Part shown: piece by piece, positions 1,469-60,622 of the stretch | Layout of the letters: every line of letters begins with the position of its first letter | Position numbering within the stretch: the first letter of the stretch is position 1 | Source: Thermoanaerobaculia bacterium | GTDB lineage: Bacteria > Acidobacteriota > Thermoanaerobaculia > Multivoradales > UBA5704 | Direction of reading: 5' to 3' | DNA length: 60,622 nt | Assembly (NCBI GenBank): GCA_035308185.1 | Contig: DATGHG010000186.1 | Coordinates: 1-60,622 of the forward strand | Notes under the pieces: generated by a model | Database searches by the model: none | What the model was told of the DNA's origin: nothing | The model's input: the letters and a program-made list of their open reading frames with translations, nothing else | Program-made: the position numbers and the translations under genes

Positions 1469-1771
1469 CTATCCGGGCAGCTTGACCGCGAGGATGTCGA
1501 TCTTCTCGATGGACGGAGGCTGCGCGAGGAGCTCCGCCGCACTCGCCATCAGCGCCGCGGCGACGCGCCCGCCGAGATGGGCCTGGCGGCCCGCGTCGTC
1601 GGCGAAGGTGTCGAAGATGCCGAAGGTCGAGGGTCCAAGCTGAGTCGCATACCAGGTGATGGTCCCCGGCTCGTCTTCGACGATCGCCAGGCCGCCGCGA
1701 AGGAAGTTGGCGACGTCCTGCTCTTTCCCGGGTTTCGCTTCCAAACGGACCAGCAGCCCCACCTTGACCAT
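1469..1771 (-). CDS. ABM-domain (antibiotic biosynthesis monooxygenase-like) protein, 100 aa
   Basis: ATG at 1771 is preceded by GGGAGGA. MVKVGLLVRLEAKPGKEQDVANFL...WYATQLGPSTFGIFDTFADDAGRQAHL fits the ABM ferredoxin-like family. The longer track ORF (to 2032) has an Arg/Pro shadow N-terminus. Confidence 0.75.
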   Translation of the reverse strand: MVKVGLLVRLEAKPGKEQDVANFLRGGLAIVEDEPGTITWYATQLGPSTFGIFDTFADDAGRQAHLGGRVAAALMASAAELLAQPPSIEKIDILAVKLPG

Positions 1772-1868
1772 GAGCTGATTCCTCCCTGTGTCGAGCTCTC
1801 TGCGAGGGCCTGGGCGGGACGGCGCCGCCACTCCCGCGGCAGGCCCGGAGACGCTAGGCCCGAGGCTA

Positions 1869-3317
1869 TCACCTCTTGGGGCCGCGAGCAGGGACGCCGG
1901 CGGCGACGTAGCCCAGCGCCGCCAGCGCCGCGGTCGCTTCGTCGCCGAAAGCGGCGGCCGGCCCGAGGCGGTTCGGTGCGGCCGCCAGCTGTGCCTCCCG
2001 CCGCTGCTCGAGATAGGCGGCGACGTCCGCATGGCCAGCCGATACGTCCCGCGTCTCGCCGGGATCGCGGGCGAGATCGAAGAGGTGGCTGCGAATCAGC
2101 TTCCAGCGCCGGCTGCGGATGGCCGCCACGCCCCCGCCGTCGAGGTTGCTCACCGCCAGCCGTTCCGGCTCGGGCCGGCGCAGCGCCAGGGGCGTCAGGT
2201 CGAGACCCGCGAAGCCGCCGGGCGACGGCACGCCCAGCACCGCCAGCACGGTCGGTGCGACGTCGATGCCGCGCACCTGCTCCGGCACGGTCTCGCCGCC
2301 GTGCGCACCGCCCGGATACTTGATCAGCAGCGGCACGCGCAGCAGCTCGTCGTAGAGAGTGTGCGAGTGCCATCCCACCTGGCCGTGCTCGCCGAACTCC
2401 TCGCCGTGATCGGAGGTGAAGACGATCGCGGTCGAGTCGTACAGGCCATGTTGCCGGAGAAACGCGACCAGGCCGCCGAAATCGTCGTCCATGGCGCGGA
2501 TCTGGGCGTCGTAGGTGGCCACCACGTGCCGCAGGTCGGCGGCGTCCAGACGCAGGAAGCCTTCGTTGATCCCGGCGAGCACCTCCAGCGGCGTTTGATC
2601 GGCCGGCAGCCGTCCGTGATAGCTCGCGCCTTCGATCATCGCCAGGTGCTGCCGGTCCGGGGTGTAGGGATGATGCACCTGGTAGGTGTGGAGGAACAGG
2701 AAAAACGGTGCGCCGGGGTGCCGCTGCAGCCAGAGGATCGCGGGCGCCACCTGGTTTGCCAGCCTCGCGGTGCCGGGGCCGACCTTGGCGGATCGGTAGC
2801 GCTCGAAGCCGCGTCCGAGCCCGAATTCCGGACCGATCTGGCCGCCCTCGTTGAACGAGAGCGTGCGGAAGCCATGAGCGAGCAGGACCTGGGCCAGCGT
2901 CTCCACGCCGGAAGCCAGCGCGGTGCCGCGCTTGTACGACGCGCCGTGCTGCGGCAGCAGCAGCGAGGTCAGCATCGAGGCGTGGGACGCCAGCGTCGAG
3001 GGCGCCTGGGCGATGGCCGTGGCGAAGAGCACCGCGTCGCGGCGAAAGCGATCCAGCTGGGGAGTGGTGGGGAAGCGGTAGCCGTAGCAGCCGAGGTGAT
3101 CGGCGCGCAGCGTGTCGATCGAGATCAGGATGCAGCCGCGGGCCGCGGGCGTGGCCGGCGGCATGGGCAGGCCACCGGCAAGCAGGCTCGCCACGCCGCC
3201 GGCAAGCAGAGCGAGACCGAGCAGGGCGGCGCTCGCGTTGCGGGCGATGCCGACCGGCAAGCGTTGCCGGATCGCTCGCGCGCCACGCATCAGCACCACG
3301 GCTCGTCGGGCGCTCAT
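1869..3317 (-). CDS. Sulfatase-like hydrolase/transferase (alkaline phosphatase superfamily), membrane-anchored
   Basis: Motifs ILISIDTLRADHLGCYGY, APSTLASHASMLT and FTSDHGEEFGEHG, with an N-terminal TM segment. The start lies 1 nt after the stop of the upstream gene. Confidence 0.9.
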   Translation of the reverse strand: MSARRAVVLMRGARAIRQRLPVGIARNASAALLGLALLAGGVASLLAGGLPMPPATPAARGCILISIDTLRADHLGCYGYRFPTTPQLDRFRRDAVLFATAIAQAPSTLASHASMLTSLLLPQHGASYKRGTALASGVETLAQVLLAHGFRTLSFNEGGQIGPEFGLGRGFERYRSAKVGPGTARLANQVAPAILWLQRHPGAPFFLFLHTYQVHHPYTPDRQHLAMIEGASYHGRLPADQTPLEVLAGINEGFLRLDAADLRHVVATYDAQIRAMDDDFGGLVAFLRQHGLYDSTAIVFTSDHGEEFGEHGQVGWHSHTLYDELLRVPLLIKYPGGAHGGETVPEQVRGIDVAPTVLAVLGVPSPGGFAGLDLTPLALRRPEPERLAVSNLDGGGVAAIRSRRWKLIRSHLFDLARDPGETRDVSAGHADVAAYLEQRREAQLAAAPNRLGPAAAFGDEATAALAALGYVAAGVPARGPKR

Positions 3318-3318
3318 C

Positions 3319-4119
3319 TCAGTTCAGCCACGGCCCGCGGGCGCCGTCTCCCTGTCCCTTGATCACGCGCAGGCCGCGCCGACGCTTGGCGCGGTCGAGC
3401 TTGCGCTGCAACCACCAGCGCTCGACGCGCAGGCGGGTCTGGCGCAGGCCGCGGCCGAAGCCGCCGTCGCGGACGTAGAGGTAGCTCAACCCCACGGCGG
3501 CGCAGATTCCGAGCAAGCCCCCCAGGTCGTGGGTGGCCAGGAAGGCGACGAACGCGAACAGGATCTCGAGCCCCAAGAAATAGCGCGCCTCGATCGGCAG
3601 CACGAAGAACAGCATGATGGTGGCGCGGCGGTTGGCGGTGGCGAAGGCGGCGACCAGGATGGCGAGCAGCACCCGCTGGCCCTGGAGCAGCGGGAAGTAG
3701 GCAGGCAGCGGCAGCAGGTTCGCACGGCCCTCCTGCAGCCCCTGCACCAGCAGGGCGACGGCGCCGGCCAGCGCCGAGGTGATCAGCAGCAGCCGCCAGA
3801 AATGCTTCCGCCCCAGGCCGCCGTAGACGTCGCGGCCGAACATGAAGAGGATCAGCAGCTCGAGGAGGAACCAGAGGTTGGGGCTGCCATAGCCGACGAA
3901 CGGGTAGGTGAGCAGCTGCCAGACGAAGCCCAGGCGCCAGGCGAGCGGCGTCAGGCGGAGCAGCTCCGGCACGATCCGGGTGGCGTCGAAGAACTGCAAG
4001 GTGAAAGTGACGAAGAGCGTGACGAGGATGATCAGCAGATCGGGCGGCGGCGCGCCCCAGGGGCCGCCCAGCCCTCCCAGGGCGACGCGCCGGCCGTAGA
4101 CGGGGTCTCTGGGGTTCAT
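3319..4119 (-). CDS. Polytopic membrane protein, divergent rhomboid-like
   Basis: About 6 TM helices. WQLLTYPFVGY...LLILFMFGRDVYGGLG, ITSALAGAV and ATHDLGGLLGICAAVG resemble the rhomboid WR/GxSG/HxxGG layout by eye. Catalytic competence is uncertain. Confidence 0.5.
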   Translation of the reverse strand: MNPRDPVYGRRVALGGLGGPWGAPPPDLLIILVTLFVTFTLQFFDATRIVPELLRLTPLAWRLGFVWQLLTYPFVGYGSPNLWFLLELLILFMFGRDVYGGLGRKHFWRLLLITSALAGAVALLVQGLQEGRANLLPLPAYFPLLQGQRVLLAILVAAFATANRRATIMLFFVLPIEARYFLGLEILFAFVAFLATHDLGGLLGICAAVGLSYLYVRDGGFGRGLRQTRLRVERWWLQRKLDRAKRRRGLRVIKGQGDGARGPWLN

Positions 4120-22499: not shown

Positions 22500-23006
22500 T
22501 TGGCGATGGCGCTCACGCCGCTCGAGATCCAGAAGATGCGTTTCCCGCGGCGGCTGCGCGGCTGCGACGCCGCCGAGGTGGAGAGCTTCCTGGCGCTGGT
22601 CGCCGAGGAGCTGGCGGCGCGGCTGGCGCAGGTCGAGAAGCTCGAGCGGGAGAACCGCTACTACCACCAGCGGCTCGAGGAGACCGAGAACCGCGAGCAC
22701 CAGCTGCAACAGACGCTGCTGCGGGCGCAGAAGGTGTCGGACGAGATCACCGCCAACGCCAAGCGCGAGGGCGAGCTGACCGTCAAGGAGGCCGAGCAGG
22801 CCGCCGACCGCATCGTCCAGCAGGCCATCGACCAGTCGTCGCGCATCGAGTCCAAGATCAACGAGCTGCGCACGCTGCGTCGCGAGCTACAGGTCAAGTT
22901 CAAGAACAACCTCGATCTCTTCCAGCGCATCCTCGAAGCGGAGATGGAGGACGAGCGCAACACCGCCACCGTCCTCACCCTGCCGCGCAAGCGGCGGGAA
23001 GCTTGA
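22500..23006 (+). CDS. divIVA: DivIVA-domain protein
   Basis: LTPLEIQKMRFPRRLRGCDAAEVESFL followed by a coiled coil. It lies downstream of yggS, as in many dcw-adjacent loci. Confidence 0.85.
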   Translation: MAMALTPLEIQKMRFPRRLRGCDAAEVESFLALVAEELAARLAQVEKLERENRYYHQRLEETENREHQLQQTLLRAQKVSDEITANAKREGELTVKEAEQAADRIVQQAIDQSSRIESKINELRTLRRELQVKFKNNLDLFQRILEAEMEDERNTATVLTLPRKRREA

Positions 23007-24343: not shown

Positions 24344-24826
24344 ATGCACCCATCGCTCATTGCGCGCGTCCTTACGGCGCTCCTGCTGCTGATCCTGGGA
24401 GGGCCGGCCGGGTCGGGCGGGTTGTCGGCAACCGCGGTCGAAAACAAGGAAGGCAAAGCCATGGAACCCAGCAAAGACACCGCCAAGGAAATCGTCACCC
24501 CCACCGGGCTCAAGTACGTGGACCAGAAGATCGGCGCCGGCCCCGAGGCCAAGGCCGGCGACGCGGTGCAGGTGCATTACACCGGTTGGTTGCTGGACGG
24601 CACCAAGTTCGACTCCAGCCGCGACCGCAACCAGCCTTTCCGCTTCAAGCTCGGCGCCGGCCAGGTGATCAAGGGCTGGGACGAGGGCGTCGCCGGCATG
24701 AAGGTCGGCGGCAAGCGCAGGCTGACCATCCCCTCGGAGCTGGGCTACGGCCGCCAGGGAGCCGGCGGCGTGATCCCGCCCGGCGCCACCCTGGTCTTCG
24801 AGGTCGAGCTGCTCGGGATCGGGTAG
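24344..24826 (+). CDS. FKBP-type peptidyl-prolyl cis-trans isomerase, secreted
   Basis: [60 protein letters not shown], with a signal peptide. Confidence 0.95.
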
Positions 24827-45375: not shown

Positions 45376-45765
45376 CTACCCGCCGCTGGCGCCGGGGGCG
45401 GCGGCCGGCGGCGCCTCGGCGGGGGGCGCCTCCGCTGCCGGCTGACCCTCGGCCTCCGGCGCCCTGGGGATCTCGATCGGCTCGTAGACCGGGATCTCGA
45501 AGCTCAGGGTCTCGTGGCAGAAGCGCTTCCACTCGTCGGTGACGTTCTCGAAGATGACGTTCTCGTCCTTGTAGATGCCGTCGGTGACGATGTAGCTGTC
45601 GTGCAGATAGAGGATCGAGTCGTCGTCGAGCTGGCGCTCGACCTCGACCTCCTTACCGCCGACCTCCTGCTTGTCCTTGCGGACGTTGGCCGCGTTCTCG
45701 CTCCAGTCGGGATACTTCCGGAAGTTCCTGGCTTCGTAGGCAGCGCAGTAGTTCGACATTTCCAT
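45376..45765 (-). CDS. Conserved hypothetical protein
   Basis: The RBS is GAGGAGA. MEMSNYCAAYEARNFRKYPDWSENA...ILYLHDSYIVTDGIYKDENVIFENVTDEWKRFCHETLSFEIP has balanced composition. Confidence 0.7.
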   Translation of the reverse strand: MEMSNYCAAYEARNFRKYPDWSENAANVRKDKQEVGGKEVEVERQLDDDSILYLHDSYIVTDGIYKDENVIFENVTDEWKRFCHETLSFEIPVYEPIEIPRAPEAEGQPAAEAPPAEAPPAAAPGASGG

Positions 45766-45968
45766 GATCGTTTCTCCTCGCTCGGGTCGCCCCATCATCC
45801 CCCAGCCTGGCGGCTCGACGCCACCCGCCGCCGGCGGCGCCGCGCCACGGCGACTCGGCAAACACCGCAGGGCTGGAGCACCCGCTACAGACAAGTGCCG
45901 GCGCGGGTCCGGGGAGGGACAGCGCCTGATAGAGTAACGGGCCGCCGGTCCGGGAGGGAGCCACGTCG

Positions 45969-49745: not shown

Positions 49746-50297
49746 TTACGGCGTGACCGACGCCTTGCGGATCGACACCGCCGCGACCGGCTTGTCACCA
49801 GGCTGGCTGGTCGGCACCGCGGCGATGGCGTCGACCACGTCCATGCCCTGGACGACCTGGCCGAACGCGGTGTAGCCCCAGCGCTGCGGCGAGCTCGAAT
49901 AGTCGAGCCGCGAATTGTCCACCACGCTGATGAAGAACTGGGCGGTGGCGCTGTTGGGATCGCCGGTGCGTGCCATGGCGATGGTGCCGCGGGCGTTCGA
50001 CAACCCGAGATTGGATTCGTTGTCGATCGGCGGCCGCGTCGGCTTCTCCGCGCCGCTGGCGTCGTAGCCGCCGCCCTGGATCATGAAGCCGGCGATGACG
50101 CGATGGAAGATCGTGCCGTCGTAGTGGCCCGCCTTGACGTACTTGAGGAAGTTGTCGACCGTCTTCGGCGCCTTCTCCGGGTACAGCTCGATCACGATCT
50201 TGCCCTTGGTGGTATCGAGCGTGACCTTGGGGTGCGGCTTGGCCGCCGGCGCGACGGCCGCCAGCAGGGCGACGACAAGAGCTAAGCTTCCGACCAT
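49746..50297 (-). CDS. Cyclophilin-type peptidyl-prolyl isomerase, secreted
   Basis: FHRVIAGFMIQGGG and GTIAMARTGDPNSATAQFFI. The RBS is AAGGAGGA. The track ORF N-terminus is shadow sequence. Confidence 0.95.
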   Translation of the reverse strand: MVGSLALVVALLAAVAPAAKPHPKVTLDTTKGKIVIELYPEKAPKTVDNFLKYVKAGHYDGTIFHRVIAGFMIQGGGYDASGAEKPTRPPIDNESNLGLSNARGTIAMARTGDPNSATAQFFISVVDNSRLDYSSSPQRWGYTAFGQVVQGMDVVDAIAAVPTSQPGDKPVAAVSIRKASVTP

Positions 50298-50379
50298 GGG
50301 GGTTCCTCCTTTGCCAGCGCAACCGGGCGGGGATGCTACCACGCCCGCCACGCCCGCCGCCCCCGCCGCCCCCGCCGCG

Positions 50380-51045
50380 GTGGGCGTGGTGCTCGCGGGC
50401 GGCGCCTCGCGTCGCATGGGTCGGGACAAGGCGATCCTGAGCGCCGGCGGCGAGACCCTGCCGGCCCGAGCGGCGCGCCGGTTGCTCGGCGTCTGCGCGC
50501 GGGTGGTGATCGCCGACGGCGGCCGCGGTCTGCTGCCGGACCTGCAATCGCTGCCGGACGGACCCGGGGCGGGACCGGCGGCCGGCATCCTGGGCGCCGC
50601 GCGCGCCTGGCCCGGGCAGCCGCTGCTGGTGCTGGCATGCGACCTGCCGCGCGTGCCGGCGGCGCTGCTCGCGGAGCTGGCAGGCGGGTCCGGGTTACAA
50701 GCCGAGGCCGACTGGGTGGTGCCGCGCTGGGAGCGCGGGCTCGAGCCGCTGTGCGCGCTCTACCGGCCGGCGGCGCTCGCCGCCCTGGCGGCAGCCGTCG
50801 CGCGCGGCGTCACGGCGCCACACCGCCTCGCCGAGGGCGCCGCGCTCGCGGTGCACTATCTGGAAGGCGAGCGCCTGCGCCGCTTCGGGCCGCCCGCCGA
50901 GCTGTTCCTGAACCTGAATACGGAGAGCGATCTGGCGCTCTGGCTGGGACTCGAAGCGCTTCAGCCGCCGTCGACGACCGTCTTCACCCCGCCCTCGGCG
51001 CAGATCGGGCAGGGGCAGACCTGGCGCAAGAAGTCGAAGCGGTAG
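50380..51045 (+). CDS. mobA: Molybdenum cofactor guanylyltransferase
   Basis: VGVVLAGGASRRMGRDKA, PGAGPAAGI and LVLACDLP. GTG start is inferred. The 3' end overlaps the convergent DUF971 gene by 85 nt. Confidence 0.75.
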   Translation: MGVVLAGGASRRMGRDKAILSAGGETLPARAARRLLGVCARVVIADGGRGLLPDLQSLPDGPGAGPAAGILGAARAWPGQPLLVLACDLPRVPAALLAELAGGSGLQAEADWVVPRWERGLEPLCALYRPAALAALAAAVARGVTAPHRLAEGAALAVHYLEGERLRRFGPPAELFLNLNTESDLALWLGLEALQPPSTTVFTPPSAQIGQGQTWRKKSKR

Positions 51046-51299
51046 ATGCCGGTCGAGTGGCCGTCCGACCAGCCGATGGAGATCGCATAGTTGCCCACCG
51101 GCTGGATCGCGTCGGCGGCCACCGGCCCGGCGGCCGGCTGGAAGCGGATGGCCAGGCCGGTGTGCCCCTGGCAGCCGGCGCACGGACACCAGCCGCGCAG
51201 ATAGTCGTAGTCGTACTCGGCGGAGTGACCGTCGCTCCAGGTGAGGCGCAGTCGCCGCTCCTGGGGCAGCCGGCGCACCTCGGTCAGCAGGAAATCCAT
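50961..51299 (-). CDS. DUF971-family protein (gamma-butyrobetaine hydroxylase N-terminal-like)
   Basis: LRLTWSDGHSAEYDYDYLRGWCPCAGC...ISIGWSDGHSTGIYRFDFLRQVCPCPIC. 112 aa. It starts 2 nt after the GGDEF gene stop. Confidence 0.8.
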   Translation of the reverse strand: MDFLLTEVRRLPQERRLRLTWSDGHSAEYDYDYLRGWCPCAGCQGHTGLAIRFQPAAGPVAADAIQPVGNYAISIGWSDGHSTGIYRFDFLRQVCPCPICAEGGVKTVVDGG

Positions 51300-51301
51300 C
51301 G

Positions 51302-53626
51302 CTACGCCACCAGCGGATAGACCCGGTTGCGCCCCTTGTTCTTGGCTTCGTAGAGCGAGCGGTCGGCGGCCGCGATGAGGTCGCGGGCGGTGAGGCGCTC
51401 GTCGCGGCGATGGCCGTCCCGCAGCGAGGCGAGACCGATCGAGATGGTGACCTGCGCCAAGCTGCCGTCCGCCATCGGCACCGACGCCGTTTGCACCTGC
51501 GAGCGGATTTTCTCGGCGACGCTGGCGGCGCCGGCGATGTCGGTCTCGGGCAGCACCACCAGGAACTCCTCGCCGCCGTAGCGGCCGATCCAGTCGGTCG
51601 AGCGCAGCCCATCGGAAGCCGCCTGCGCGATCGCCTTGAGCAGGGTGTCGCCGGCCAGGTGTCCGTGGCGGTCGTTGACTTCCTTGAAGTAGTCGAGATC
51701 GGCCATCGCCAGGGTGAGCGGCCGGCCGTACCGCTGGGCACGCTCGAGCTCGCGGTCGAGCTGCTCGAGGATCGCCTCGCGCCGCAGCAAACCGGTCAGG
51801 CTCTCGTAGGTGGCGGACTCGAAGAGGCGGGCGTTCTCGAACACGCTGGCGACGTGGTGGGCCAATAGGGTGAGCAGGTCCTGCTCCTCGGACGGGTAAG
51901 GCTGGCCGTCGTGTTTGGCGCCGACCACCAGCGCCCCGATGAGGCGCTGCTGATTGAGCAGCGGCACCCCCAGCCCCGGCCCGTCGAGGCCGCGCAGCCG
52001 GTGGGCGAGCAGGCTGCTGCGTGCCGCGAGCAGCTGCGTCGCGACCGGCCGTGAAGCACGTTGCAGCAGCTCGATGCCGGGGTCGTCGAGCGCCACCAGC
52101 AGCGACCGCTCGGCATCCTGCCAGCCGTCGCCGGTGGCCGCCAGCACCTTCAGCAGACCGCTCTCGGGATTGGCGATGAGCAGCACCGCCGAGCGCGACT
52201 GGAAGATCGCGGTGAGCCGCGCCACCAGATGGCGGCCCATGCGCGGCAGCTTGCCCAGCGCCGGCAGCTCGCCGGCCAGGGCGATCAACCGCCGCCGCAG
52301 CTCGTCGCGCTCGGGAAAGAAGCGCCGGTCGATGAGACGGTGGGTGAGCCGCCGCAGCGGCGCGAAGAGCAGGCCGAGCAGCAGCATGGCGATGCCCACC
52401 CGCCAGGGGGACTGGCGGCCGGCCGCCGCGCCGGCCACCGCCGGCGGGAACAGCAGCCAGATGGCGCCCAGGGCGCCGTAGAACACCAGCACCAGCGCGC
52501 CGCTCAGGGTGGTGTAGATGAGGCCGCGACGCACCGCCAGCTCGATGTCGAAGAGGTGGAAGCGGAACACCGCGGCGAACAGCGCCACCGGGAAGCAGAG
52601 CAGGACCAGGGTCTGCACGGCGGCGAACCAGCTCGGGAGCGGATGGCCGATGAAGGTCAGGATCGAGGCATACAGGGTGAACAGGAACCAGGCCACGGTC
52701 GCCGACAGCACCAGCCCCGCCTGGTGGCGGCCGCGCGGCTCCGGGTGGCGCAGCGCCTGGCTGGCCAGCAGGAGCGAGACCGCCAGCGCCCAGAACGGCA
52801 GGCCGAACTCGTTGAACCAGGCATCCGCCTGGCCGCTGGTCCACGGCAGGGCATAGGCGCCGAGCCGCTCGTCGCTGAGGTAGGTGGCGCACCAGGCGAT
52901 GCCGGCGCAGAGCCCGGCCACGTAATAGACCGGCACCACCCAGGGGCGCCGCCGCAGCCAGGCCGGACGGTCGGGGATCAGCGAGGCGAGGTGCAGCTCG
53001 AGCCCGAACTCGGCGCAGGTGAGCAGGTAGAAGACACAGGTCGCCCAGGTGTTCACCCAGCTGTGCCCGATCACCGGCACGACGGTGTTGGGCAGCAGCA
53101 GCTCGATCGCCACCGCCATCGAGAACCCCAGCAACAGCCGAGTGCGCGGGTCGGTCAGGCTCTGGCTGAGCGCCAGCAGCGCGACCGCCAGGAAGCCGAG
53201 CGCGGTGACGGCGTTGAACAGGAAGGCGAAGAGCGGGAACGGCGTGCCCGGCCGTAGGGTGACGTCGAGGAGCCGGTCGCCGCGCACCAGCCGGAAGCGC
53301 ACCGGCCGGCCCGCCCGGAAGCGGCTGGCCGCGGCGCCGTAGGAGAGCTTGCCGTGCAGCGGGGCGCCGTCGACGCTGATGATCCGGTCGCCGGCGCGCA
53401 GGCCCGCGATGTCGGCGGGCCACCCGGGGGTCACGGCGTCGACGCGCCCGCCATCCGGCAGGTTGGTGAGGTCGTAGCCGATCCGGCGCCCGACGCTGCG
53501 CGAGCTCTCCAGGGCCTGCACGTAGAACAGCGCCAAGGCCACCAGCGCCAGGGCCAGCGCAAGCCCCCAGCGCAGCGGGCGGTCATCGGCGGCCATGGGT
53601 GCTTCGCGGCGGCCGTGGGCGATCAT
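51302..53626 (-). CDS. PDZ / multi-TM / GAF / GGDEF diguanylate cyclase
   Basis: The PDZ motif is VTPGWPADIAGLRAGDRIISVDG. It has about 10 TM helices and a GAF-like segment. The GGDEF active site is RYGGEEF, with an RSTD (RxxD) I-site 5 aa upstream. The start is at 53626 or 53596. Confidence 0.85.
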   Translation of the reverse strand: MIAHGRREAPMAADDRPLRWGLALALALVALALFYVQALESSRSVGRRIGYDLTNLPDGGRVDAVTPGWPADIAGLRAGDRIISVDGAPLHGKLSYGAAASRFRAGRPVRFRLVRGDRLLDVTLRPGTPFPLFAFLFNAVTALGFLAVALLALSQSLTDPRTRLLLGFSMAVAIELLLPNTVVPVIGHSWVNTWATCVFYLLTCAEFGLELHLASLIPDRPAWLRRRPWVVPVYYVAGLCAGIAWCATYLSDERLGAYALPWTSGQADAWFNEFGLPFWALAVSLLLASQALRHPEPRGRHQAGLVLSATVAWFLFTLYASILTFIGHPLPSWFAAVQTLVLLCFPVALFAAVFRFHLFDIELAVRRGLIYTTLSGALVLVFYGALGAIWLLFPPAVAGAAAGRQSPWRVGIAMLLLGLLFAPLRRLTHRLIDRRFFPERDELRRRLIALAGELPALGKLPRMGRHLVARLTAIFQSRSAVLLIANPESGLLKVLAATGDGWQDAERSLLVALDDPGIELLQRASRPVATQLLAARSSLLAHRLRGLDGPGLGVPLLNQQRLIGALVVGAKHDGQPYPSEEQDLLTLLAHHVASVFENARLFESATYESLTGLLRREAILEQLDRELERAQRYGRPLTLAMADLDYFKEVNDRHGHLAGDTLLKAIAQAASDGLRSTDWIGRYGGEEFLVVLPETDIAGAASVAEKIRSQVQTASVPMADGSLAQVTISIGLASLRDGHRRDERLTARDLIAAADRSLYEAKNKGRNRVYPLVA

Positions 53627-53823
53627 CGGCGCAATGGGTTCCCCTGAGGAAGTGAACGAGAAATTATACCCTATCCCGGTCTTTCTCTCGTATGCAAGGG
53701 GTGACGCCCTTATCGTTCTTACGTATTTTATACTCTGCATTTCATGGTGGGAAGGGGCCGTCCCCCTAAGGCGGAATCTCCGGGTATCCGGCGTGCCGCG
53801 GCCTGCCGCCGTCCTGGGGTACC

Positions 53824-55011
53824 ATGGGCGCCTTCGCCATGCCCCGCTTCCCGAATTTCTCGCCATCGGTCGCCGACATCTCCGGCGCCGTCTACTCGGC
53901 GCTGGCGCACCGCCTGGCCAGCTTTCCGGGCGAGGTCTACCCGCTGCACGTGGGCGACACCTGGATGGAGCCGCCGGTGGGCTGCCGCATGGAGGACCTG
54001 ACGGTCGCCGCCTGGCCGGGCATGCACCGCTATGCGCCGCCGCAGGGGTTGCCGGCCCTGCTCGATGCCGTCGTCGAGCGCACGCGGCAGCGCACCGGCG
54101 TCGCCACCGAGCGCGAGAACGTGCTGGCGGCGACCGGCGCCACCGGCGGCCTGGGGGCGGTGGCCGGCGCCATCCTGCGCCCCGGCGACGAGGTGCTGGT
54201 GCTCGCGCCTCACTGGCCGCTGATCTCGGGGATCGTCCGCTCGTTCCACGGCGTGCCCGTGGACGTCCCGTTCTTCGGCGTCGCCGACTCGCCGGAGACC
54301 GCCGTCGAGCTGGTGGAGGCCAGCCTGCGCGAGCGCTCGGTGGCGCTCTACCTCAACACGCCGAGCAACCCGACCGGGCAGGTGATCCCGCGGCCGGTGG
54401 TCGAGGCGCTGGTCGCCTGGGCCCAGCGCCGCCGTCTCTGGATCCTGGCCGACGAGGTCTACGAGGACTATGTCTACGCCGGCGAGCACACCTACGTCCG
54501 GCCGCTGGCGCCCGAGAGCACCTTCGCCGTCCATTCGTTCTCCAAGGCCTTCGGCATGGCCGGCAACCGTTGCGGCTACGTGATCGGTCCCGCCGCGGCC
54601 ATGCCGGAGCTGCGCAAGGTGGGCCTGCACAGCTTCTACAGCACGCCGACGGCCTCCCAGCTCGCCGCGGTCAAGGTGCTGGGCGATGCCGGCAGGGAAT
54701 GGCTCGCGCAGGCACGGGAGCAGTACCGGCAAACCGGCGAGCGCGTCGCGGCGCGCCTCGGGCTGCCTGCCCCTGGCGGCAGCACCTTCCTCTTCCTCGA
54801 CGTCGCCGATCGCCTGGATGAAAGGGGCCTGGAAGGGTTCCTCGAAGCCTGCGTGGAGCGCGGCCTGTTCCTCGCCCCGGGGCCGAGCTTCGGTCCCTAT
54901 CCGACCCACGTCCGGCTGTGCTTCACGTCCGCGCCGCCGGCGGTGGTCGATCGCGGGGTCGAGGTGCTCGCGTCGCTGCTCGGCGGCTATAATGTGCAGC
55001 GCCGATGCTGA
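53824..55011 (+). CDS. Class I/II pyridoxal-phosphate-dependent aminotransferase
   Basis: YAPPQGLPALL, NTPSNPTG and SFSKAFGMAGNRCGY (PLP lysine). Confidence 0.9.
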   Translation: MGAFAMPRFPNFSPSVADISGAVYSALAHRLASFPGEVYPLHVGDTWMEPPVGCRMEDLTVAAWPGMHRYAPPQGLPALLDAVVERTRQRTGVATERENVLAATGATGGLGAVAGAILRPGDEVLVLAPHWPLISGIVRSFHGVPVDVPFFGVADSPETAVELVEASLRERSVALYLNTPSNPTGQVIPRPVVEALVAWAQRRRLWILADEVYEDYVYAGEHTYVRPLAPESTFAVHSFSKAFGMAGNRCGYVIGPAAAMPELRKVGLHSFYSTPTASQLAAVKVLGDAGREWLAQAREQYRQTGERVAARLGLPAPGGSTFLFLDVADRLDERGLEGFLEACVERGLFLAPGPSFGPYPTHVRLCFTSAPPAVVDRGVEVLASLLGGYNVQRRC

Positions 55012-55017
55012 AATAGG

Positions 55018-55770
55018 ATGGCCGTTCCGGCTCCACCGGCCGCACCGGCCGTAGCCATGGGCGCCGTCGCCGACTCCAGTCAGCTGCGCGATCTCGAGCT
55101 CTTCCAAGGGCTGGAGGCCGATCGGCTCGCCCAGCTCAACCAGCTCCTGCGCGCTGCCACGGTGCCCGCCGGCACCCATTTCATCACCGCCGATCAGCCC
55201 GGCGACGTGGTCTACGTCCTGCTCGAAGGAACGGTGAAGATCTACGTCAGCCGGGCCGACGGCCGCGAGGTGATCCTCGCCTTCCTGGGCCCCGGGGACA
55301 CGGTGGGCGAGATGAGCCTGGTGGACAGCGCCGGCCGCTCGGCCAACGTGGTGACCACCGAGCTGTCGCGGCTGCTATGGATGGACCGCGTCTCCTTCCA
55401 GGCCTGCCTGCGCGACATGGCGCCGCTGGCCAACAACCTGGTGCGCCTGCTGTCGCAACGCCTGCGTTTCGCCAACGAGCAGATCCAAGCGCTGTGCACG
55501 CTCGACGTGCCCGGCCGGGTGGCACGCCAGATCCTGGCGCTGGCCGACCGTTACGGCCGCTCCGCCCCGGGCGCCGGGGCCGGCGCGGCGGGCGAGGTCA
55601 AGATCCACCTGCGGCTCACCCAGAGCGATCTCGGCGAGGTGGTCGGGGCCTCCCGCGAGCGGGTGAACCAGGCGATCGTCGAGTTCAAGCAGCACGGCTA
55701 CATCGCCGTCGACTCCGATCACCGCATCCACGTCCGCGACCGCCAGGCCCTGACCCGCTACTGCGCCTGA
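55018..55770 (+). CDS. Crp/Fnr-family transcriptional regulator
   Basis: The cNMP-binding fold is GDVVYVLLEGTVKI...GPGDTVGEMSL. The C-terminal HTH is LTQSDLGEVVGASRERVNQAIVEFK. Confidence 0.85.
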   Translation: MAVPAPPAAPAVAMGAVADSSQLRDLELFQGLEADRLAQLNQLLRAATVPAGTHFITADQPGDVVYVLLEGTVKIYVSRADGREVILAFLGPGDTVGEMSLVDSAGRSANVVTTELSRLLWMDRVSFQACLRDMAPLANNLVRLLSQRLRFANEQIQALCTLDVPGRVARQILALADRYGRSAPGAGAGAAGEVKIHLRLTQSDLGEVVGASRERVNQAIVEFKQHGYIAVDSDHRIHVRDRQALTRYCA

Positions 55771-57821
55771 GCGGCGGAAGCTGCCGCCGCCAGCGCCTGC
55801 CGCGCCGCGTCGAGCAGCGCGCGGGCCGAGACCGGGCCGCCGACGGCGCCGCGCATCCAGGCGTCGGGCGTCAGGCGCCCCTGGCGGGCGATGCGCTCGA
55901 GCTCGGCGCCGACGGCGTCCGGCGGCGCGCCCGGCGCGGTCTCGACCTGCCGCAGGCGGGCCGCCAGCTGGAAGGCGACGATGTGCCCCAGCGCATAGTC
56001 CGGCAGGTAGAGGGAGTAGGCGATCATGTGGGAGTAGATCGCCAGCAGCTCGCAGCCGGGATGGCCCAGGCGCGGCGCGAAGAAGCGGTCCCACACCTCG
56101 CGGGCGATGGCCAGCACCGCCTCGCGCAGCGCCGCCGGCGTGGCCTCCGGGTGGGCGTAGAGCCAGCGCCAGACGCGCATGTCCACCAGCGACACGCCGG
56201 CGATCTCGAAGGTGCTCCAGAGCGTCGCCAGGGCAGGGGCGTGGCGGTCGGCGGCGGCGGTGGCCAGACCCAGCAGCTCGAGGTCGCGCTCCTGGAAGAG
56301 GAAGGCGAAGGCCTCGGTGAAGGCATTGTTGGGCACCCCGGCCAGCCACCAGTGATCGATGCCGTCGAGCGAGAACACCTGCTCGACGTTGTGCCCGAGC
56401 TCGTGCATCGCGACGTTGTAGCCCTGGTAGTCCATGCCGGCCTCGCCCACCCGGGTGCGCAGGTGGGAGCGATCGCCGCGCCGCACCGCGCCGAGGGCGT
56501 GACCGGCGCCCTTCGCTCGATCGACCACGACGCGGTGGGCCAGCCACGCCGCCCGCTCGGGCGAGAACCCCAGCCGCGCCAGCAGATCCGGCAGCGCCGC
56601 CTGGAAGGCGCCGGCGGTCGGAAAGGCGGCCCGTGCCCGGGCGTCGAGCTCCGCCTCGCCGTGGCGGCCGCGGGCCTTGAAACCCGAGTACCAGATATCG
56701 AACGGTTCGAGCGGCCGGCCGAGGCGGCCGGCGATGTGGCGGGCCAGCTCGTCGACCTCCGGCGCCTCCAGCACCGTCAGCAGCAGCGCCTCGACCTCCT
56801 CCTCCGGGATCTGGCGCCCGAGCTCGAAGCGGCGCGCCGGCAGGGTCGGCGCGGTCGGAGTGTAGGGATCGACCGGCAGCTGGCTGCGGAAGATGGCGAG
56901 CAGCTGCTCGTAGCGCCGGTCCGGCTCTCGACCTGCCGGGAGTGTCGCGATTGGCGACGACCCTGCGTCCGCCCCGTCCGCGCCGGCCGCGAGCGGCAGC
57001 ACCGTGTTGGCCTCCGGCTCCCAGAGCAGCTTGGGGTTGTCGATCACCGCCGCCGGGATCTCCTGACGCACGATGCGCTCCATCACCCGCAGGATCAGCC
57101 GCTGGCGCGCCAGCGCTCCGGCGGCGTCGGGGTCCGCGTAGTGGGCCGCCAGCTCGTCGCGCAGCCCCCAGTGGCTGATCAGCCGCAGCCCTTCCGGGAA
57201 CAGCCGCTCGCCGCGCGGGGTGATCAGCCGGTCCAGGCGGAGGTTGTAGGTGGAGACGTACTCCTCGGCGGCGGTTCCGGCGCGGTTCGCCGCCTGTGCC
57301 ACCGCCGCCGGCACCCGGCTGGCGAAGCGGTCCATCATCCGCGAGCGCGCCCAGGCGGCGCGGTCCCAGCCGGCGCTCTCGGCCAGGCGCTGGCGCAGCG
57401 TATGGACCGGGAAGTTCAGCAGCGCGAAGCCGGCGACGCGGTTGCGGAAGAGATCCTCGTCGACGTGCGGAGCCAGGTCCAGGTGGACCAGCAGCGCATC
57501 CACGGCGGTGACCGGCGCCGCCGCGCCGCGTTCGGTCTCGATCGGCGCCAGCAGCTCGCGGCGGACCTCGTGGAGCCGCCCGTCCACCTGCTCGAGCACC
57601 TCTTCGAGCCGGCGGCAGCTGCGCTCGAGCTCCACCGGGTCGGCCTGGAAAGCCGCCTCGCAAAAGGCGCCCAGCTCGTCGGCGTCGCCGTCCTCCGGCC
57701 ACCAGCAGGCGGCCAGCTGCTCGACGCCGCGGCGGATCCGCTCCGCCTGGCCGTCGCCGTGGCGGCTGCGCAGCCGCTCGACGATGTCCGCGATCGCCGC
57801 CGGCGGGATCGTCGGGATCAT
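55758..57821 (-). CDS. HExxH zinc metallopeptidase, M3/PepF-like C-terminal half with an unassigned ~350-aa N-terminal region
   Basis: MHELGHNVEQ...NAFTEAFAFLFQE (gluzincin third-ligand Glu) and YSHMIAYSLYLPDYALGH. The ATG overlaps the upstream TGA (ATGA). Confidence 0.75.
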   Translation of the reverse strand: MIPTIPPAAIADIVERLRSRHGDGQAERIRRGVEQLAACWWPEDGDADELGAFCEAAFQADPVELERSCRRLEEVLEQVDGRLHEVRRELLAPIETERGAAAPVTAVDALLVHLDLAPHVDEDLFRNRVAGFALLNFPVHTLRQRLAESAGWDRAAWARSRMMDRFASRVPAAVAQAANRAGTAAEEYVSTYNLRLDRLITPRGERLFPEGLRLISHWGLRDELAAHYADPDAAGALARQRLILRVMERIVRQEIPAAVIDNPKLLWEPEANTVLPLAAGADGADAGSSPIATLPAGREPDRRYEQLLAIFRSQLPVDPYTPTAPTLPARRFELGRQIPEEEVEALLLTVLEAPEVDELARHIAGRLGRPLEPFDIWYSGFKARGRHGEAELDARARAAFPTAGAFQAALPDLLARLGFSPERAAWLAHRVVVDRAKGAGHALGAVRRGDRSHLRTRVGEAGMDYQGYNVAMHELGHNVEQVFSLDGIDHWWLAGVPNNAFTEAFAFLFQERDLELLGLATAAADRHAPALATLWSTFEIAGVSLVDMRVWRWLYAHPEATPAALREAVLAIAREVWDRFFAPRLGHPGCELLAIYSHMIAYSLYLPDYALGHIVAFQLAARLRQVETAPGAPPDAVGAELERIARQGRLTPDAWMRGAVGGPVSARALLDAARQALAAAASAAQAQ

Positions 57822-58912
57822 ATGGGCGGCTTGAGGGCCGCCGCCACCAGGCCGTCGTCGATGACCAGGCGGTGGCCGGCGCCGTTGGGCTGCACCTCGG
57901 GGCGTGCGAAGGGGTCGAACTCGAAAGGCTTGATGATCCGGCCGTAGATCGACTTCAGGGCGCGGGCGCCGATGCGGCTGCTCTTGGCCGCCTCCTCGGC
58001 GATCCGCTGCACCGCCTGCTCGGTCACCTCGAGCTCGATGCCCTGCCGGCCGAAGAAGCGCTGCGAGATGCGCAGCACGCCGTCCTCGGGCTCGCTGAAG
58101 ATGCGCGACAGCAGGGCGGCGTTGAGGTCCTCGAGGATCACCGCGTTGTCGAAGCGGGACAGGAACTGCGGCTGCATGCCGTACTCGAAGAGGTCCTCCG
58201 GCCGGAAGTGGTGGCGCAGGGTGAAGTACTCGCGGATCGAGACCTTGCCGTCGATGTAGGTGGTGACGGTTGGCAGCTTGATGCCGCTCTTGGGCGATAC
58301 GACGCGGGCGAAGACCTGGTCGTAGAGGGTCTCGAAGGCGCCGGCGCAGAGGAACAGCATCTTGCCGGTGTCCACCCAGACGGTGCTGGCCTGAGTCAGG
58401 CCGGCCGCCGACGTCGGGGCGGTGATGCGGTAGGGCACCCGCTCGCCCTCGATCAGGGTGAGGACCGCCTGCTGGATGTTGATGCCGGTGACGTAGGGCT
58501 TGCCGCCGATCACCCCCGAGACCTTGTCGATCTCGTCGAGGCAGATGGTGGCGCGCTCCATCAGGCGGCCGATCTGCTCGGCGGTGGCGCCGGCGCCGAG
58601 CACCTGCCGCACCCGCTCTTCGAGGCGCGAGAACAGGCGGCTGGTATCCACCGACCCGTCCTCGGTGGCGAAGGTGTTGGCGTTCATGATCAGCACCACG
58701 CGGTACTCGGCGAGCTCCTCGAAGGCGCCGTAGAGCGCCTCGATGCCGCGCATGATGGTGGTCTTGCCGGTGCCGGAGTTGCCGATCAGCAGCAGGTTGC
58801 CGTACTTCTCCCCCTGCAGGTGCTTGAAGATCGCCACCGAGACGTAGCGCAACGCCTCTTGCTGGCCAAGCACCCGCTGGCTCAGCTGCTCGAAGATGTC
58901 TACAGGTTTCAT
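57818..58912 (-). CDS. ClpX-like AAA+ ATPase lacking the N-terminal zinc-binding domain
   Basis: GNSGTGKT (Walker A), ICLDEIDKV (Walker B), GINIQQAVLTLIEGERV, MLFLCAGAF, QPQFLSRFD and IGARALKSI are colinear with ClpX. GGAG lies 4 nt upstream of the ATG. Confidence 0.85.
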   Translation of the reverse strand: MKPVDIFEQLSQRVLGQQEALRYVSVAIFKHLQGEKYGNLLLIGNSGTGKTTIMRGIEALYGAFEELAEYRVVLIMNANTFATEDGSVDTSRLFSRLEERVRQVLGAGATAEQIGRLMERATICLDEIDKVSGVIGGKPYVTGINIQQAVLTLIEGERVPYRITAPTSAAGLTQASTVWVDTGKMLFLCAGAFETLYDQVFARVVSPKSGIKLPTVTTYIDGKVSIREYFTLRHHFRPEDLFEYGMQPQFLSRFDNAVILEDLNAALLSRIFSEPEDGVLRISQRFFGRQGIELEVTEQAVQRIAEEAAKSSRIGARALKSIYGRIIKPFEFDPFARPEVQPNGAGHRLVIDDGLVAAALKPPI

Positions 58913-59041
58913 TCGACTCCGTTTCTAGTCAGCGGCGCCTGCCAGGGGACGCCCCACCCCCTCTTCGAGGGGAGTTGGTTCCAGACCACAGAGAACCGCC
59001 CGGCCGCGCCGCCGATTCCCCGGGGGAGGTAGACTCCGCGG

Positions 59042-60622
59042 GTGAACCGGCACGCCGCCCGCGACCTCGAGCGCCACCTCAACCCCGACCAGATCGCCGC
59101 CGTCACTCACGGCGAGGGCCCGCAGCTGGTGCTGGCGGGGGCCGGATCGGGCAAGACCCGGGTGATCACCTGGCGCATCTCGTGGCTGGTCGAGGAGCGC
59201 GGCGTCGACCCCGGCCAGATCGCCGCCGTGACCTTCACCAACAAGGCGGCCGGGGAGATGCGCGAGCGGGTGGAGGAGCTGCTCGGGATGCACCCGCTGC
59301 CGGCCTCGGTGGGCACCTTCCATCGCTTCGCGCTGCTGCTGCTGCGCCGCTACGGCGAGCGGGTGGGCGTCAAGCGCGACTTTGCCGTCCACGACGCCGC
59401 CGATCAGCTGGCGCTGATCAAGGAAGCGCTGGGCGCCGAGGGGCTGTCGGAGACCGCCTTCTCGCCGCGCTCGGTGCTGGCGCAGATCAGCGCCGCCAAG
59501 AACCGCCTCATCGAGCCGGCCGCCTACGAGTCGGCGGCGAGCAACTTCTTCGAGAAGAAGGTGTCCGCCCTCTACCGGCGTTACCAGGGGCTGCTGATGC
59601 AGGCCTCCGGCGTCGATTTCGACGATCTCATCGCGCTCGCCGTCAAGCTGCTCGCCGCCGACGCCGAGGTGCGGTCCCGGGTCCGCGCCCGCACCCGTTA
59701 CCTGCTGGTCGACGAGTACCAGGACACCAACCACGCCCAGCTGCGCCTGATCCAGGAGCTGGCCGGTCCCGACGGCAACCTCACCGCGGTGGGGGACGAG
59801 GACCAGGGGATCTACCGCTGGCGGGGCGCCAACCTCGAGAACATCCTGCGCTTCGAGGAGGCGTTCCCGGGCGCCACCGTCCGCAAGCTCGAGCGCAACT
59901 ATCGCTCGACGCAGACCATCCTCGACCTCTCCGGGGCGCTGATCGCGCACAACGTCAACCGCCGGGGCAAGCGCCTGTGGACCGACCGCGGCGCCGGCGA
60001 GAAGGTCGAGCTCTACCGCGCCGCCGACGAGATCGAGGAGGCGCGCTGGGTGGTCGACACCCTGCGCGGGCTCTCCCGCCAGATCAAGCTCAGCGACATG
60101 GCGGTGCTGGTGCGCACCAACGCCCAGACCCGCGCCATCGAGGACGAGCTGCTCAAGCGCGAGATCCCCTACGCCCTGGTCGGCGGCGTCCGCTTCTACG
60201 ACCGCGCCGAGATCAAGGACCTGGTCGCCTACCTGCGCGTGCTGCGCAACCCGCGCGACAACTTCTCGCTGTCGCGCATCTTCAACCAGCCGCCGCGCGG
60301 CATCGGCAAATCGACGGTCGAGATGCTGCGCGAGCAGGCCGTGCAGCTCGGCCAGACGCTCTGGGACGTCATCTACTTCGAGCAGCTGGGGGCGCTGCCG
60401 GCGCGCAGCGCCACCGCCGTGCGGCGCTTCCGCGAGCTGATCGTGGGCCTCCAGGAGGCCGCCGCCGAGCTGCCCCTGCCGGCCCTGCTGGATCGCCTGC
60501 TGTCCTCGACCGGCATGGCCGACGTCTACCGCGACGACGATCCCGAGGACCAGGCCCGCCTGGAAAACATCCGCGAGCTGCTGTCGGCGGCGCAGCAGTT
60601 CACCGAGGCCAACAGCTACAAC
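59042..60622 (+). CDS. uvrD: UvrD/PcrA-type superfamily 1 DNA helicase (3'-truncated by the window edge)
   Basis: Not in the ORF track because it is open-ended. GTG 59042 is the first start after an in-frame TAG. Motifs are LAGAGSGKTRV, TFTNKAAGEMRER, LVDEYQDTN, VGDEDQGIYRWRGA and NYRST. Confidence 0.9.
   Translation, partial: MNRHAARDLERHLNPDQIAAVTHGEGPQLVLAGAGSGKTRVITWRISWLVEERGVDPGQIAAVTFTNKAAGEMRERVEELLGMHPLPASVGTFHRFALLLLRRYGERVGVKRDFAVHDAADQLALIKEALGAEGLSETAFSPRSVLAQISAAKNRLIEPAAYESAASNFFEKKVSALYRRYQGLLMQASGVDFDDLIALAVKLLAADAEVRSRVRARTRYLLVDEYQDTNHAQLRLIQELAGPDGNLTAVGDEDQGIYRWRGANLENILRFEEAFPGATVRKLERNYRSTQTILDLSGALIAHNVNRRGKRLWTDRGAGEKVELYRAADEIEEARWVVDTLRGLSRQIKLSDMAVLVRTNAQTRAIEDELLKREIPYALVGGVRFYDRAEIKDLVAYLRVLRNPRDNFSLSRIFNQPPRGIGKSTVEMLREQAVQLGQTLWDVIYFEQLGALPARSATAVRRFRELIVGLQEAAAELPLPALLDRLLSSTGMADVYRDDDPEDQARLENIRELLSAAQQFTEANSYN

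Follow-up and report, generated by a model that had tools for sequence, protein, structure and literature searches.

A ClpX-derived AAA+ ATPase and an ACE/M3/M32-type zinc peptidase: two uncharacterized families side by side in one lineage of Thermoanaerobaculia

Background

ClpX, a member of the AAA+ group (ATPases associated with diverse cellular activities), is docked into the hydrophobic grooves of ClpP by a loop bearing the tripeptide (I/L/V)-G-(F/L), hereafter the IGF tripeptide (bioRxiv 10.1101/638692). The present work concerns a 60,622-nucleotide stretch of DNA from a Thermoanaerobaculia bacterium (Acidobacteriota; contig DATGHG010000186.1 of assembly GCA_035308185.1), hereafter the window, in which the gene for a ClpX-like ATPase overlaps that for a zinc metallopeptidase; a first-pass annotation had suggested that the two might constitute a split, FtsH-like ATP-dependent metalloprotease. 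In FtsH itself, the M41 domains form a hexameric ring that is fused to the underside of the AAA ring, and the pore loops are aromatic. In structures of the M2 (e.g., ACE), M3, and M32 peptidases, the active site lies in the cleft between the lobes and accepts only short unfolded peptides.

Both proteins of the window are new family-level variants of well-known kinds, and the best reading of the data is that they represent two independent, uncharacterized families juxtaposed in one lineage. Each family is large and is as a rule found apart from the other, which makes a new two-part ATP-driven protease unlikely. Literature searches found no paper describing a pairing of a ClpX paralogue with an oligopeptidase, or describing either family. 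The features central to this account are the following:

57818..58912, minus strand: ClpX-derived AAA+ ATPase of 364 amino acids (aa), of an unnamed orphan family (open reading frame [ORF] list, ClpX models, PDB)
55758..57821, minus strand: zinc metallopeptidase of 687 aa, with an ACE/M32/M3-type gluzincin fold (ORF list, AlphaFold2 [AF2] model, Foldseek)
57818..57821, minus strand: ATGA stop/start overlap, joining the TGA of the ATPase gene to the ATG of the peptidase gene (sequence and translation)

Sequence and translation agree with the first-pass annotation on the placement of both ORFs and on their overlap, and the translations contain the motifs that it had listed, namely GNSGTGKT, CLDEIDK, FLSRFD, and GARALK in the ATPase and HELGH, E503, and YSHMIAYSLYLPDY in the peptidase. 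Both ORFs are supported as real genes by their codon-position GC signature (GC content at third codon positions of 0.96 for the ATPase and 0.94 for the peptidase, in a window of 72% GC), and the nearest named relatives of both proteins come from metagenome-assembled genomes of Thermoanaerobaculia (Acidobacteriota).

The two families normally occur without each other

The peptidase family comprises at least 1123 representative clusters at 50% identity and was found in at least 597 reference species in a genome scan with a tighter alignment (A4), with members in Acidobacteriota, Myxococcota, Bacteroidota, Ignavibacteria, KSB1, Gammaproteobacteria, and others, annotated as “hypothetical” throughout. 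Linkage was assessed from the peptidase side by searching 83 peptidase loci, with flanks of up to 6-8 kb on each side, for the window ATPase with tblastn. An ATPase gene was detected in only 13 of these loci, all from the close Thermoanaerobaculia/Acidobacteriota group. It is present upstream on the peptidase strand only in loci L001-L010, L013, and L025, all of which derive from Thermoanaerobaculia or Acidobacteriota and have peptidases of at least 59% identity; tblastn detected none within 6 kb in the ~60 other peptidase loci with room upstream. The neighbors of the peptidase in other phyla are a mixed set (SnoaL, a PNP-family phosphorylase, a sigma-54 activator, CMD, GNAT, and oxidoreductases), and all-against-all clustering of the ORFs from 84 loci recovered no broadly shared neighbor, the top clusters being shadow ORFs inside the high-GC peptidase gene itself.

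A comparable picture emerges from the ATPase side. The first homologue search gave only close relatives, at 76% identity or more, among the matches listed. Distant members were sought by scanning metagenome contigs with a DNA pattern for Walker A that had A/T-ending codons at three positions, and homologues of 39-56% identity were thereby recovered from low- and mid-GC organisms. A search seeded with one distant member yielded 2146 relatives at E <= 1e-20, whose identities to the window protein fall into tiers of 45-52%, 61-70%, and 72% or above. Every context sampled at less than 70% identity is devoid of both the peptidase and ClpP/HslV. Homologues of the peptidase, ClpP, HslV, and uvrD are absent within 5 kb of P0494 (66% identity), P0498 (64%), P0431 (49%), and P0437 (47%), and likewise from the fetched flanks of the distant members at L090 and L086/L098, while neither the peptidase nor ClpP/HslV is found near the distant member at L092. 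More generally, ClpP and HslV queries, which were approximate sequences, had no match in any of ~100 loci. The genes that do surround these ATPases differ from case to case: in P0494, which is from Terriglobia, a PhzF gene lies downstream; L090 has the order AspRS, saccharopine-dehydrogenase-like protein, ATPase, creatininase-family protein, and ABC permease; and in L086/L098 a patatin gene and a DUF481 gene precede the ATPase. At L090:4324-5403, a creatininase-family (PF02633) amidohydrolase gene follows 24 nucleotides (nt) downstream of the ATPase homologue, which is 52% identical to the window protein; this is a single case, on a metagenome contig of 34% GC.

Within the Thermoanaerobaculia clade, the two genes belong to a larger conserved neighborhood. 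Nine of the 83 fetched loci, each of which belongs to the clade, have a divergent uvrD gene as a direct neighbor, and the Crp-family and aminotransferase genes keep their places in L004 and L084. As the unrelated uvrD is equally syntenic, the adjacency of ATPase and peptidase is explicable by shared descent, and it forms part of a block whose synteny is shared by fairly close relatives. The overlap itself (ATGA) is not conserved; relatives instead have spacers of up to ~90 nt, a cupin insert, or a gap of 2.4 kb (L006). The insert is an antisense Cupin_2 gene that lies between the ATPase and peptidase genes in five genomes (L003/L025, L005, L009, L010, and L013); it encodes ~108 aa (L003:7587-7913, minus strand) and is absent from the window. 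We also considered a link between the ATPase and uvrD and rejected it, given that their divergent adjacency is confined to the clade and is not seen around distant ATPase members. Conservation of the gene neighborhood had been proposed in the first-pass annotation as a check on the pairing; in relatives beyond the Thermoanaerobaculia clade, the pair is not syntenic.

An ATPase derived from ClpX

The ATPase is ClpX-derived, yet it is not ClpX. Its reported colinearity with the ClpX AAA+ module was borne out by phmmer against PDB, in which residues 3-333 align with Escherichia coli ClpX (E = 3e-27), and its identity to canonical ClpX is ~29%. The NCBIfam ClpX models score it far below their cutoffs (NF003745, 139.4 bits versus 359; TIGR00382, 106.9 versus 370.75), and the second-best family match is the HslU model, at 60 bits, through the C-terminal lid and sensor-2 region. 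ClpX chains alone make up the top Foldseek matches of the AF2 model, which is of moderate quality (predicted local distance difference test [pLDDT], 70). Its sequence features are as follows:

58760..58783, minus strand: Walker A, GNSGTGKT (GPTGSGKT in ClpX); from the translation, nearly invariant in the family
58646..58675, minus strand: pore-1 loop position, TFATEDGSVD, with Ser at the place of the Tyr of ClpX GYVG (alignments with ClpX)
58523..58543, minus strand: Walker B, CLDEIDK; from the translation, with D126, E127, D129, and K130 invariant, including versus ClpX
58268..58297, minus strand: loop at the IGF position, SPKSGIKLPT, without (I/L/V)-G-(F/L) (alignments; AF2 confidence is low here)
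58148..58165, minus strand: Arg-finger segment FLSRFD with R253; from the translation, R253 invariant, including versus ClpX
57953..57970, minus strand: sensor-2 segment GARALK with R317; from the translation, with G315, A316, and R317 invariant

The catalytic core of the AAA+ module is hence intact, with K50, D126, E127, R253, and R317 invariant, including in comparison with ClpX. As had been noted in the first pass, the protein has no zinc-binding N-domain, IGF tripeptide, or GYVG aromatic, and alignments with ClpX confirm the loss of both loops: TEAGYVG of ClpX corresponds to TEDGSVD, SGIGFG corresponds to SGIKLP, and other residues stand in place of the RKH segment. The first residue of Walker A is residue 44, and no Cys precedes it, versus residue 119 with five preceding Cys in Salmonella ClpX. 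In the AF2 model, residues 192-262 fall below a pLDDT of 50.

These departures extend to the family as a whole. Common to all tiers are the lack of a zinc domain, the motifs GNSGTGKT(T/S/A), GGKPxVxGIxIQQ, YGMxPQFLSRFD, and GARALK, and a C-terminal FEFDPF. Pore loop 1 takes the form NAN(T/S)LAxEEG-x-V, in which the position of the ClpX Tyr is variable and almost never aromatic, and in the alignment of all tiers the IGF tripeptide is absent throughout. The KLP found at its position in the window protein is kept only by members of 61% identity or more and is not conserved in the 39-52% tier.

With respect to database names, JGI/IMG designates the members P0122-P0240 and P0397-P0502 “ATP-dependent Clp protease ATP-binding subunit ClpX,” while NCBI has only “AAA family ATPase”; the bit scores of these members fall well short of the ClpX equivalog cutoff, and none of the ClpX-specific loops is present in them. 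Two other origins or roles were considered for the ATPase and set aside. A mobile or viral origin found no support, as tblastn against plasmid and phage collections gave only canonical ClpX at ~29% identity, and for a role in a defense system PADLOC returned only weak matches at the level of the P-loop (DolB, E = 8.5e-6 over 64 residues).

A zinc peptidase of the ACE/M3/M32 fold group

The predicted active-site features of the 687-aa protein all lie in its C-terminal half:

56391..56405, minus strand: HELGH zinc-binding/catalytic motif with H473, E474, and H477 (translation; 38 of 44 diverse members)
56313..56315, minus strand: E503, predicted third zinc ligand, 26 residues after H477, within TEAFAFLFQE (translation, hhalign)
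55995..56036, minus strand: YSHMIAYSLYLPDY, conserved His/Tyr-rich helix with H598, Y605, and Y609 (kept among the closer family members)

The AF2 model of this protein is of good quality (pLDDT, 85.3; predicted template modeling score, 0.87), and Foldseek aligned it over ~685 columns (probability, 1.00; E, ~1e-6; template modeling [TM] score, 0.5-0.62) with the solved structures of ACE (M2; 4c2r and others), M32 peptidases (3hoa and 5giv), and Pz-peptidase A (M3B; 3ahm). As the model aligns with these structures from end to end, the N-terminal ~350 aa, which the first-pass annotation had treated as a separate region that could not be assigned to any family, are predicted to be the first half of a single two-lobed channel-peptidase fold of the ACE/M3/M32 type. 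The presence of a gluzincin peptidase fold with HExxH and Glu ligands, as originally supposed, is borne out by the AF2 model, Foldseek, and motif conservation.

Sequence comparisons are far less sensitive to this relationship. Searches of Pfam, NCBIfam, PADLOC, and PDB sequences gave no match to the window protein, and a profile of 44 diverse members compared with PDB sequences returned noise only. Scanning the members singly against Pfam produced sub-threshold matches to the zinc motif only, with the M3 model hit by 1 of the 44 (E = 0.027). Comparison by hhalign of the family with a bona fide M3 peptidase gave a probability of 41% over ~50 residues, confined to the zinc motif, and placed E503 on the Glu of FVELPSQ in the canonical M3 peptidase; the corresponding probability for a true M2 peptidase was 0.6%, and the Pfam M2 model had no match. 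Since profile comparison aligns the zinc motif alone with M3 and gives 0.6% for M2, we assign the family to the M2/M3/M32 fold group without including it in M3. The earlier label “PepF/M3-like” is accordingly sound at the level of fold and clan but not as membership in M3, given that similarity to M2, M32, and M3B is about equal and the Pfam M3 model fails. The HEFGH motif of human thimet oligopeptidase presumably occupies the same residue numbers as the HELGH of the window protein.

The putative zinc-site residues H473, E474, H477, and E503 are invariant in the window protein and 40 close relatives, and HExxH with the Glu is retained in 38 of the 44 diverse representatives. The other six (P0259, P0266, P0267, P0304, P0310, and P0338) are without HExxH and/or the Glu (e.g., LNDLGR, LYLLGQ, and VASLGY); they keep the other positions conserved across the fold and, judging from these substitutions, are likely to be pseudo-peptidases. 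A crude test found signal peptides or lipoboxes in about half of the diverse representatives; the window peptidase and those of its clade have no signal peptide, and the window protein has no lipobox either.

Certain neighbors of the peptidase in other lineages are themselves of interest. In an Ignavibacteriales locus (L049:3654-5750), a canonical Peptidase_M3 gene lies directly upstream on the same strand, and in Cystobacter fuscus (L018:3509-5428) this place is taken by a canonical Peptidase_M2/ACE-like gene, also on the same strand. A conserved cluster of ORFs of ~636 aa recurs at the latter position in 11 myxobacterial loci, of which the L018 member alone was scanned against Pfam. Such arrangements suggest gene clusters for peptide catabolism. 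On two contigs of mid to low GC, a sigma-54 activator (a bacterial enhancer-binding protein with an AAA+ domain and a Fis-type helix-turn-helix) is encoded 16-17 nt upstream of the peptidase homologue (L052:4758-5855 and L061:4897-5862), which may point to sigma-54-dependent regulation of the peptidase in these cases.

Alternative readings of the gene pair

The proposal of a split, FtsH-like ATP-dependent metalloprotease is not supported by these observations. Synteny of the two genes is lost outside one narrow clade, whether one starts from the ATPase or from the peptidase; within that clade, uvrD is equally syntenic and the cupin gene intervenes in five genomes; and about half of the diverse peptidases look exported. 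The predicted architecture is likewise unfavorable, as the peptidase is modeled as a single-chain channel enzyme and not as a ring on which a hexamer could dock. This clamshell fold and the lack of a pore-1 aromatic in the ATPase together disfavor a mechanism in which an unfoldase threads substrates into a capped protease. A second option offered in the first-pass annotation, that of the ATPase as a non-proteolytic remodeller, is viable. We consider it probable that the window holds two independently functioning genes, which stand side by side in one Thermoanaerobaculia lineage and in this genome happen to overlap.

Several points weigh against such independence. Every ATPase gene seen in the clade, in ~16 genomes, precedes the peptidase gene in the same orientation; the ATGA overlap of the window fits co-translation, and co-transcription is likely in about half of the clade loci, where the spacer is shorter than ~90 nt; the KLP loop, being strongly conserved at 61% identity and above, suggests a segment that contacts something; and the role that we ascribe to the ATPase is arrived at by exclusion, with no other partner or client identified. 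The linkage, the operon-like spacing, and the conserved loop at the ClpP-docking position could all be accommodated by a functional pair specific to this clade, in which the ATPase has been recruited to a cytosolic ACE-fold peptidase as an ATP-driven gate-opener, chaperone, or substrate-presenting factor; both proteins would indeed share the cytosol, since the peptidases of the clade are without signal peptides. Nevertheless, we regard a pair of this type as unlikely. The adjacency recurs in no independent lineage of either family, and the behavior of uvrD and of the cupin gene tells against it too. Moreover, P0494 and P0498 keep the KLP loop without having a peptidase neighbor, so its conservation is not tied to the peptidase, while the modeled single-chain clamshell would present no ring for a hexamer to dock on and the ATPase has no aromatic pore-1 residue to drive threading. 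The more specific notion of the ATPase as a dedicated ATP-dependent partner of the ACE-fold oligopeptidase, opening or closing the clamshell or feeding it peptide segments, is in our estimate less probable still; if true, it would be an AAA+/peptidase pairing of a kind not described before.

One might also look to an ordinary ClpP encoded elsewhere in the genome, for which the ATPase would be an alternative specificity subunit, with the peptidase only mopping up the released peptides. Oligopeptidases do act downstream of ATP-dependent proteases in established proteolysis pathways, and ClpX is the nearest relative of the ATPase by sequence and fold, with the catalytic motifs intact and a loop of similar length persisting at the IGF position. 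However, that loop is not conserved in sequence across the tiers, the tripeptide responsible for docking to ClpP (bioRxiv 10.1101/638692) and the pore-1 aromatic are absent family-wide, and no ClpP lies beside any sampled member; a ClpP partnership thus seems very improbable to us. We attach the least weight to the idea that the peptidase-like protein is here a non-enzymatic binding or regulatory protein, remodeled, alone or in its complexes, by the ATPase. Non-catalytic use of the fold does exist in the family, as the 6 of 44 diverse members lacking HExxH or the Glu illustrate, but these degenerate members belong to other lineages, and the four predicted zinc-site residues are invariant in the window protein and all 40 of its close relatives.

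Under the reading that we prefer, of two genes functioning independently, the 687-aa protein would act in the cytosol as a zinc-dependent oligopeptidase or carboxypeptidase and would represent a new family of the MA(E) type; H473, H477, and E503 would hold the zinc, and E474 would serve as the catalytic base. If it behaves like other enzymes of the M2, M3, and M32 fold, its active site would lie in the cleft between the lobes and admit only short unfolded peptides; its likely job would then be late-stage peptide turnover, for which an unfoldase would not be needed. The ATPase, for its part, is expected to assemble, presumably as a hexamer, and to hydrolyze ATP, because it retains intact Walker A and Walker B motifs, Arg finger, and sensor-2. 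We consider it most likely that it acts without a peptidase, in a remodeling or chaperone-type capacity, on some client; that it functions as a processive threading motor is unlikely.

Surroundings in the window

The pair is bounded on both sides by genes of opposite orientation:

58913..59041, no strand assigned: intergenic stretch between the divergent ATPase and uvrD genes, presumed promoter region
59042..60622, plus strand: boundary gene for a UvrD/PcrA-like helicase, of which the N-terminal 527 aa are present before the gene leaves the window (UvrD-helicase annotation of relatives)
55018..55770, plus strand: boundary gene for a Crp/Fnr-family regulator, convergent (Pfam cNMP_binding and HTH_Crp_2)

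As uvrD diverges upstream and the Crp-family gene converges from downstream, the ATPase and peptidase genes can form a two-gene unit at most. The regulator and peptidase genes share 13 nt at the 3′ end of the latter, and L084 is arranged likewise. A consensus scan of 55500..59300 gave no sigma-70-like or terminator-like sites, a result that is uninformative for an acidobacterial genome of 72% GC. In agreement with the first-pass annotation, tblastn with approximate query sequences detected no ClpP or HslV gene in the window, and the window has no second ClpX-like gene.

Farther along, an 854-aa diguanylate cyclase with PDZ, GAF, and GGDEF domains (51302..53866, minus strand) adjoins the aminotransferase and the Crp-family regulator, and this block of three is found again in L084. 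Housekeeping genes nearby encode DivIVA, an FKBP-type peptidyl-prolyl isomerase (PPIase), and a cyclophilin-type PPIase (22500..23006, 24344..24826, and 49746..50588), and four coding-looking ORFs are without a Pfam match (1472..2032, 3322..4119, 45379..45894, and 50637..51317).

Significance and comparison with known systems

The idea of a new split ATP-dependent metalloprotease is probably wrong, and effort should not go there first. What the locus does offer is a phylum-spanning zinc peptidase family of the ACE/M3/M32 fold, which sequence searches of Pfam, NCBIfam, and PDB fail to detect and which includes both exported and apparently catalytically dead members and deserves a family model of its own. 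It also offers an orphan ATPase family in which the ClpX scaffold no longer resembles a threading, ClpP-coupled motor, and which is a natural case for AAA+ specialists. Renaming those of its members that are mislabeled “ClpX” would keep false conclusions about Clp proteolysis from being drawn for these genomes.

FtsH resembles the pair only in the broad scheme of an AAA+ module coupled to an HExxH zinc protease, which in that case is M41 and is fused to it; the window peptidase is predicted to be an unrelated, single-chain clamshell, and the window ATPase is without pore aromatics. The resemblance to ClpX is much closer: the AAA+ module is colinear in both its large and its small domain, and the two proteins have in common Walker A and Walker B, the Arg finger, sensor-2, and the QQ segment of pore 2. 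The ATPase differs from ClpX in having no C4 zinc-binding N-domain, GYVG aromatic, RKH loop, or IGF tripeptide and in possessing the family-specific motifs GNSGTGKT, YGMxPQFLSRFD, and FEFDPF. HslU (ClpY) is likewise devoid of an IGF loop, but the ATPase has neither its I-domain insertion nor an hslV neighbor and is far less similar to it than to ClpX. A precedent for a non-proteolytic remodeller of the ClpX type is provided by mitochondrial ClpX without ClpP, such as yeast Mcx1, an unfoldase that activates ALA synthase; unlike the window ATPase, mitochondrial ClpX of this type keeps the canonical aromatic pore loops.

On the side of the peptidase, the M32 (Taq-type) carboxypeptidases have the same fold (3hoa and 5giv), albeit with no sequence similarity detected and with lower query-normalized TM scores (0.40-0.41). 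The thimet/PepF/Pz-peptidase group (M3; PF01432) agrees in fold (3ahm), is of comparable overall length, and has a zinc motif, HELGH...FVELPSQ, that aligns with the HELGH...TEAFA of the peptidase, although the Pfam M3 model fails on the window protein. ACE (M2; PF01401) has no detectable sequence similarity to it, with an identity in structural alignments of 12-14%, but nevertheless provides its best structural matches, spanning both lobes at full length (TM score, 0.53-0.62), and carries HExxH with a downstream Glu at a similar spacing.

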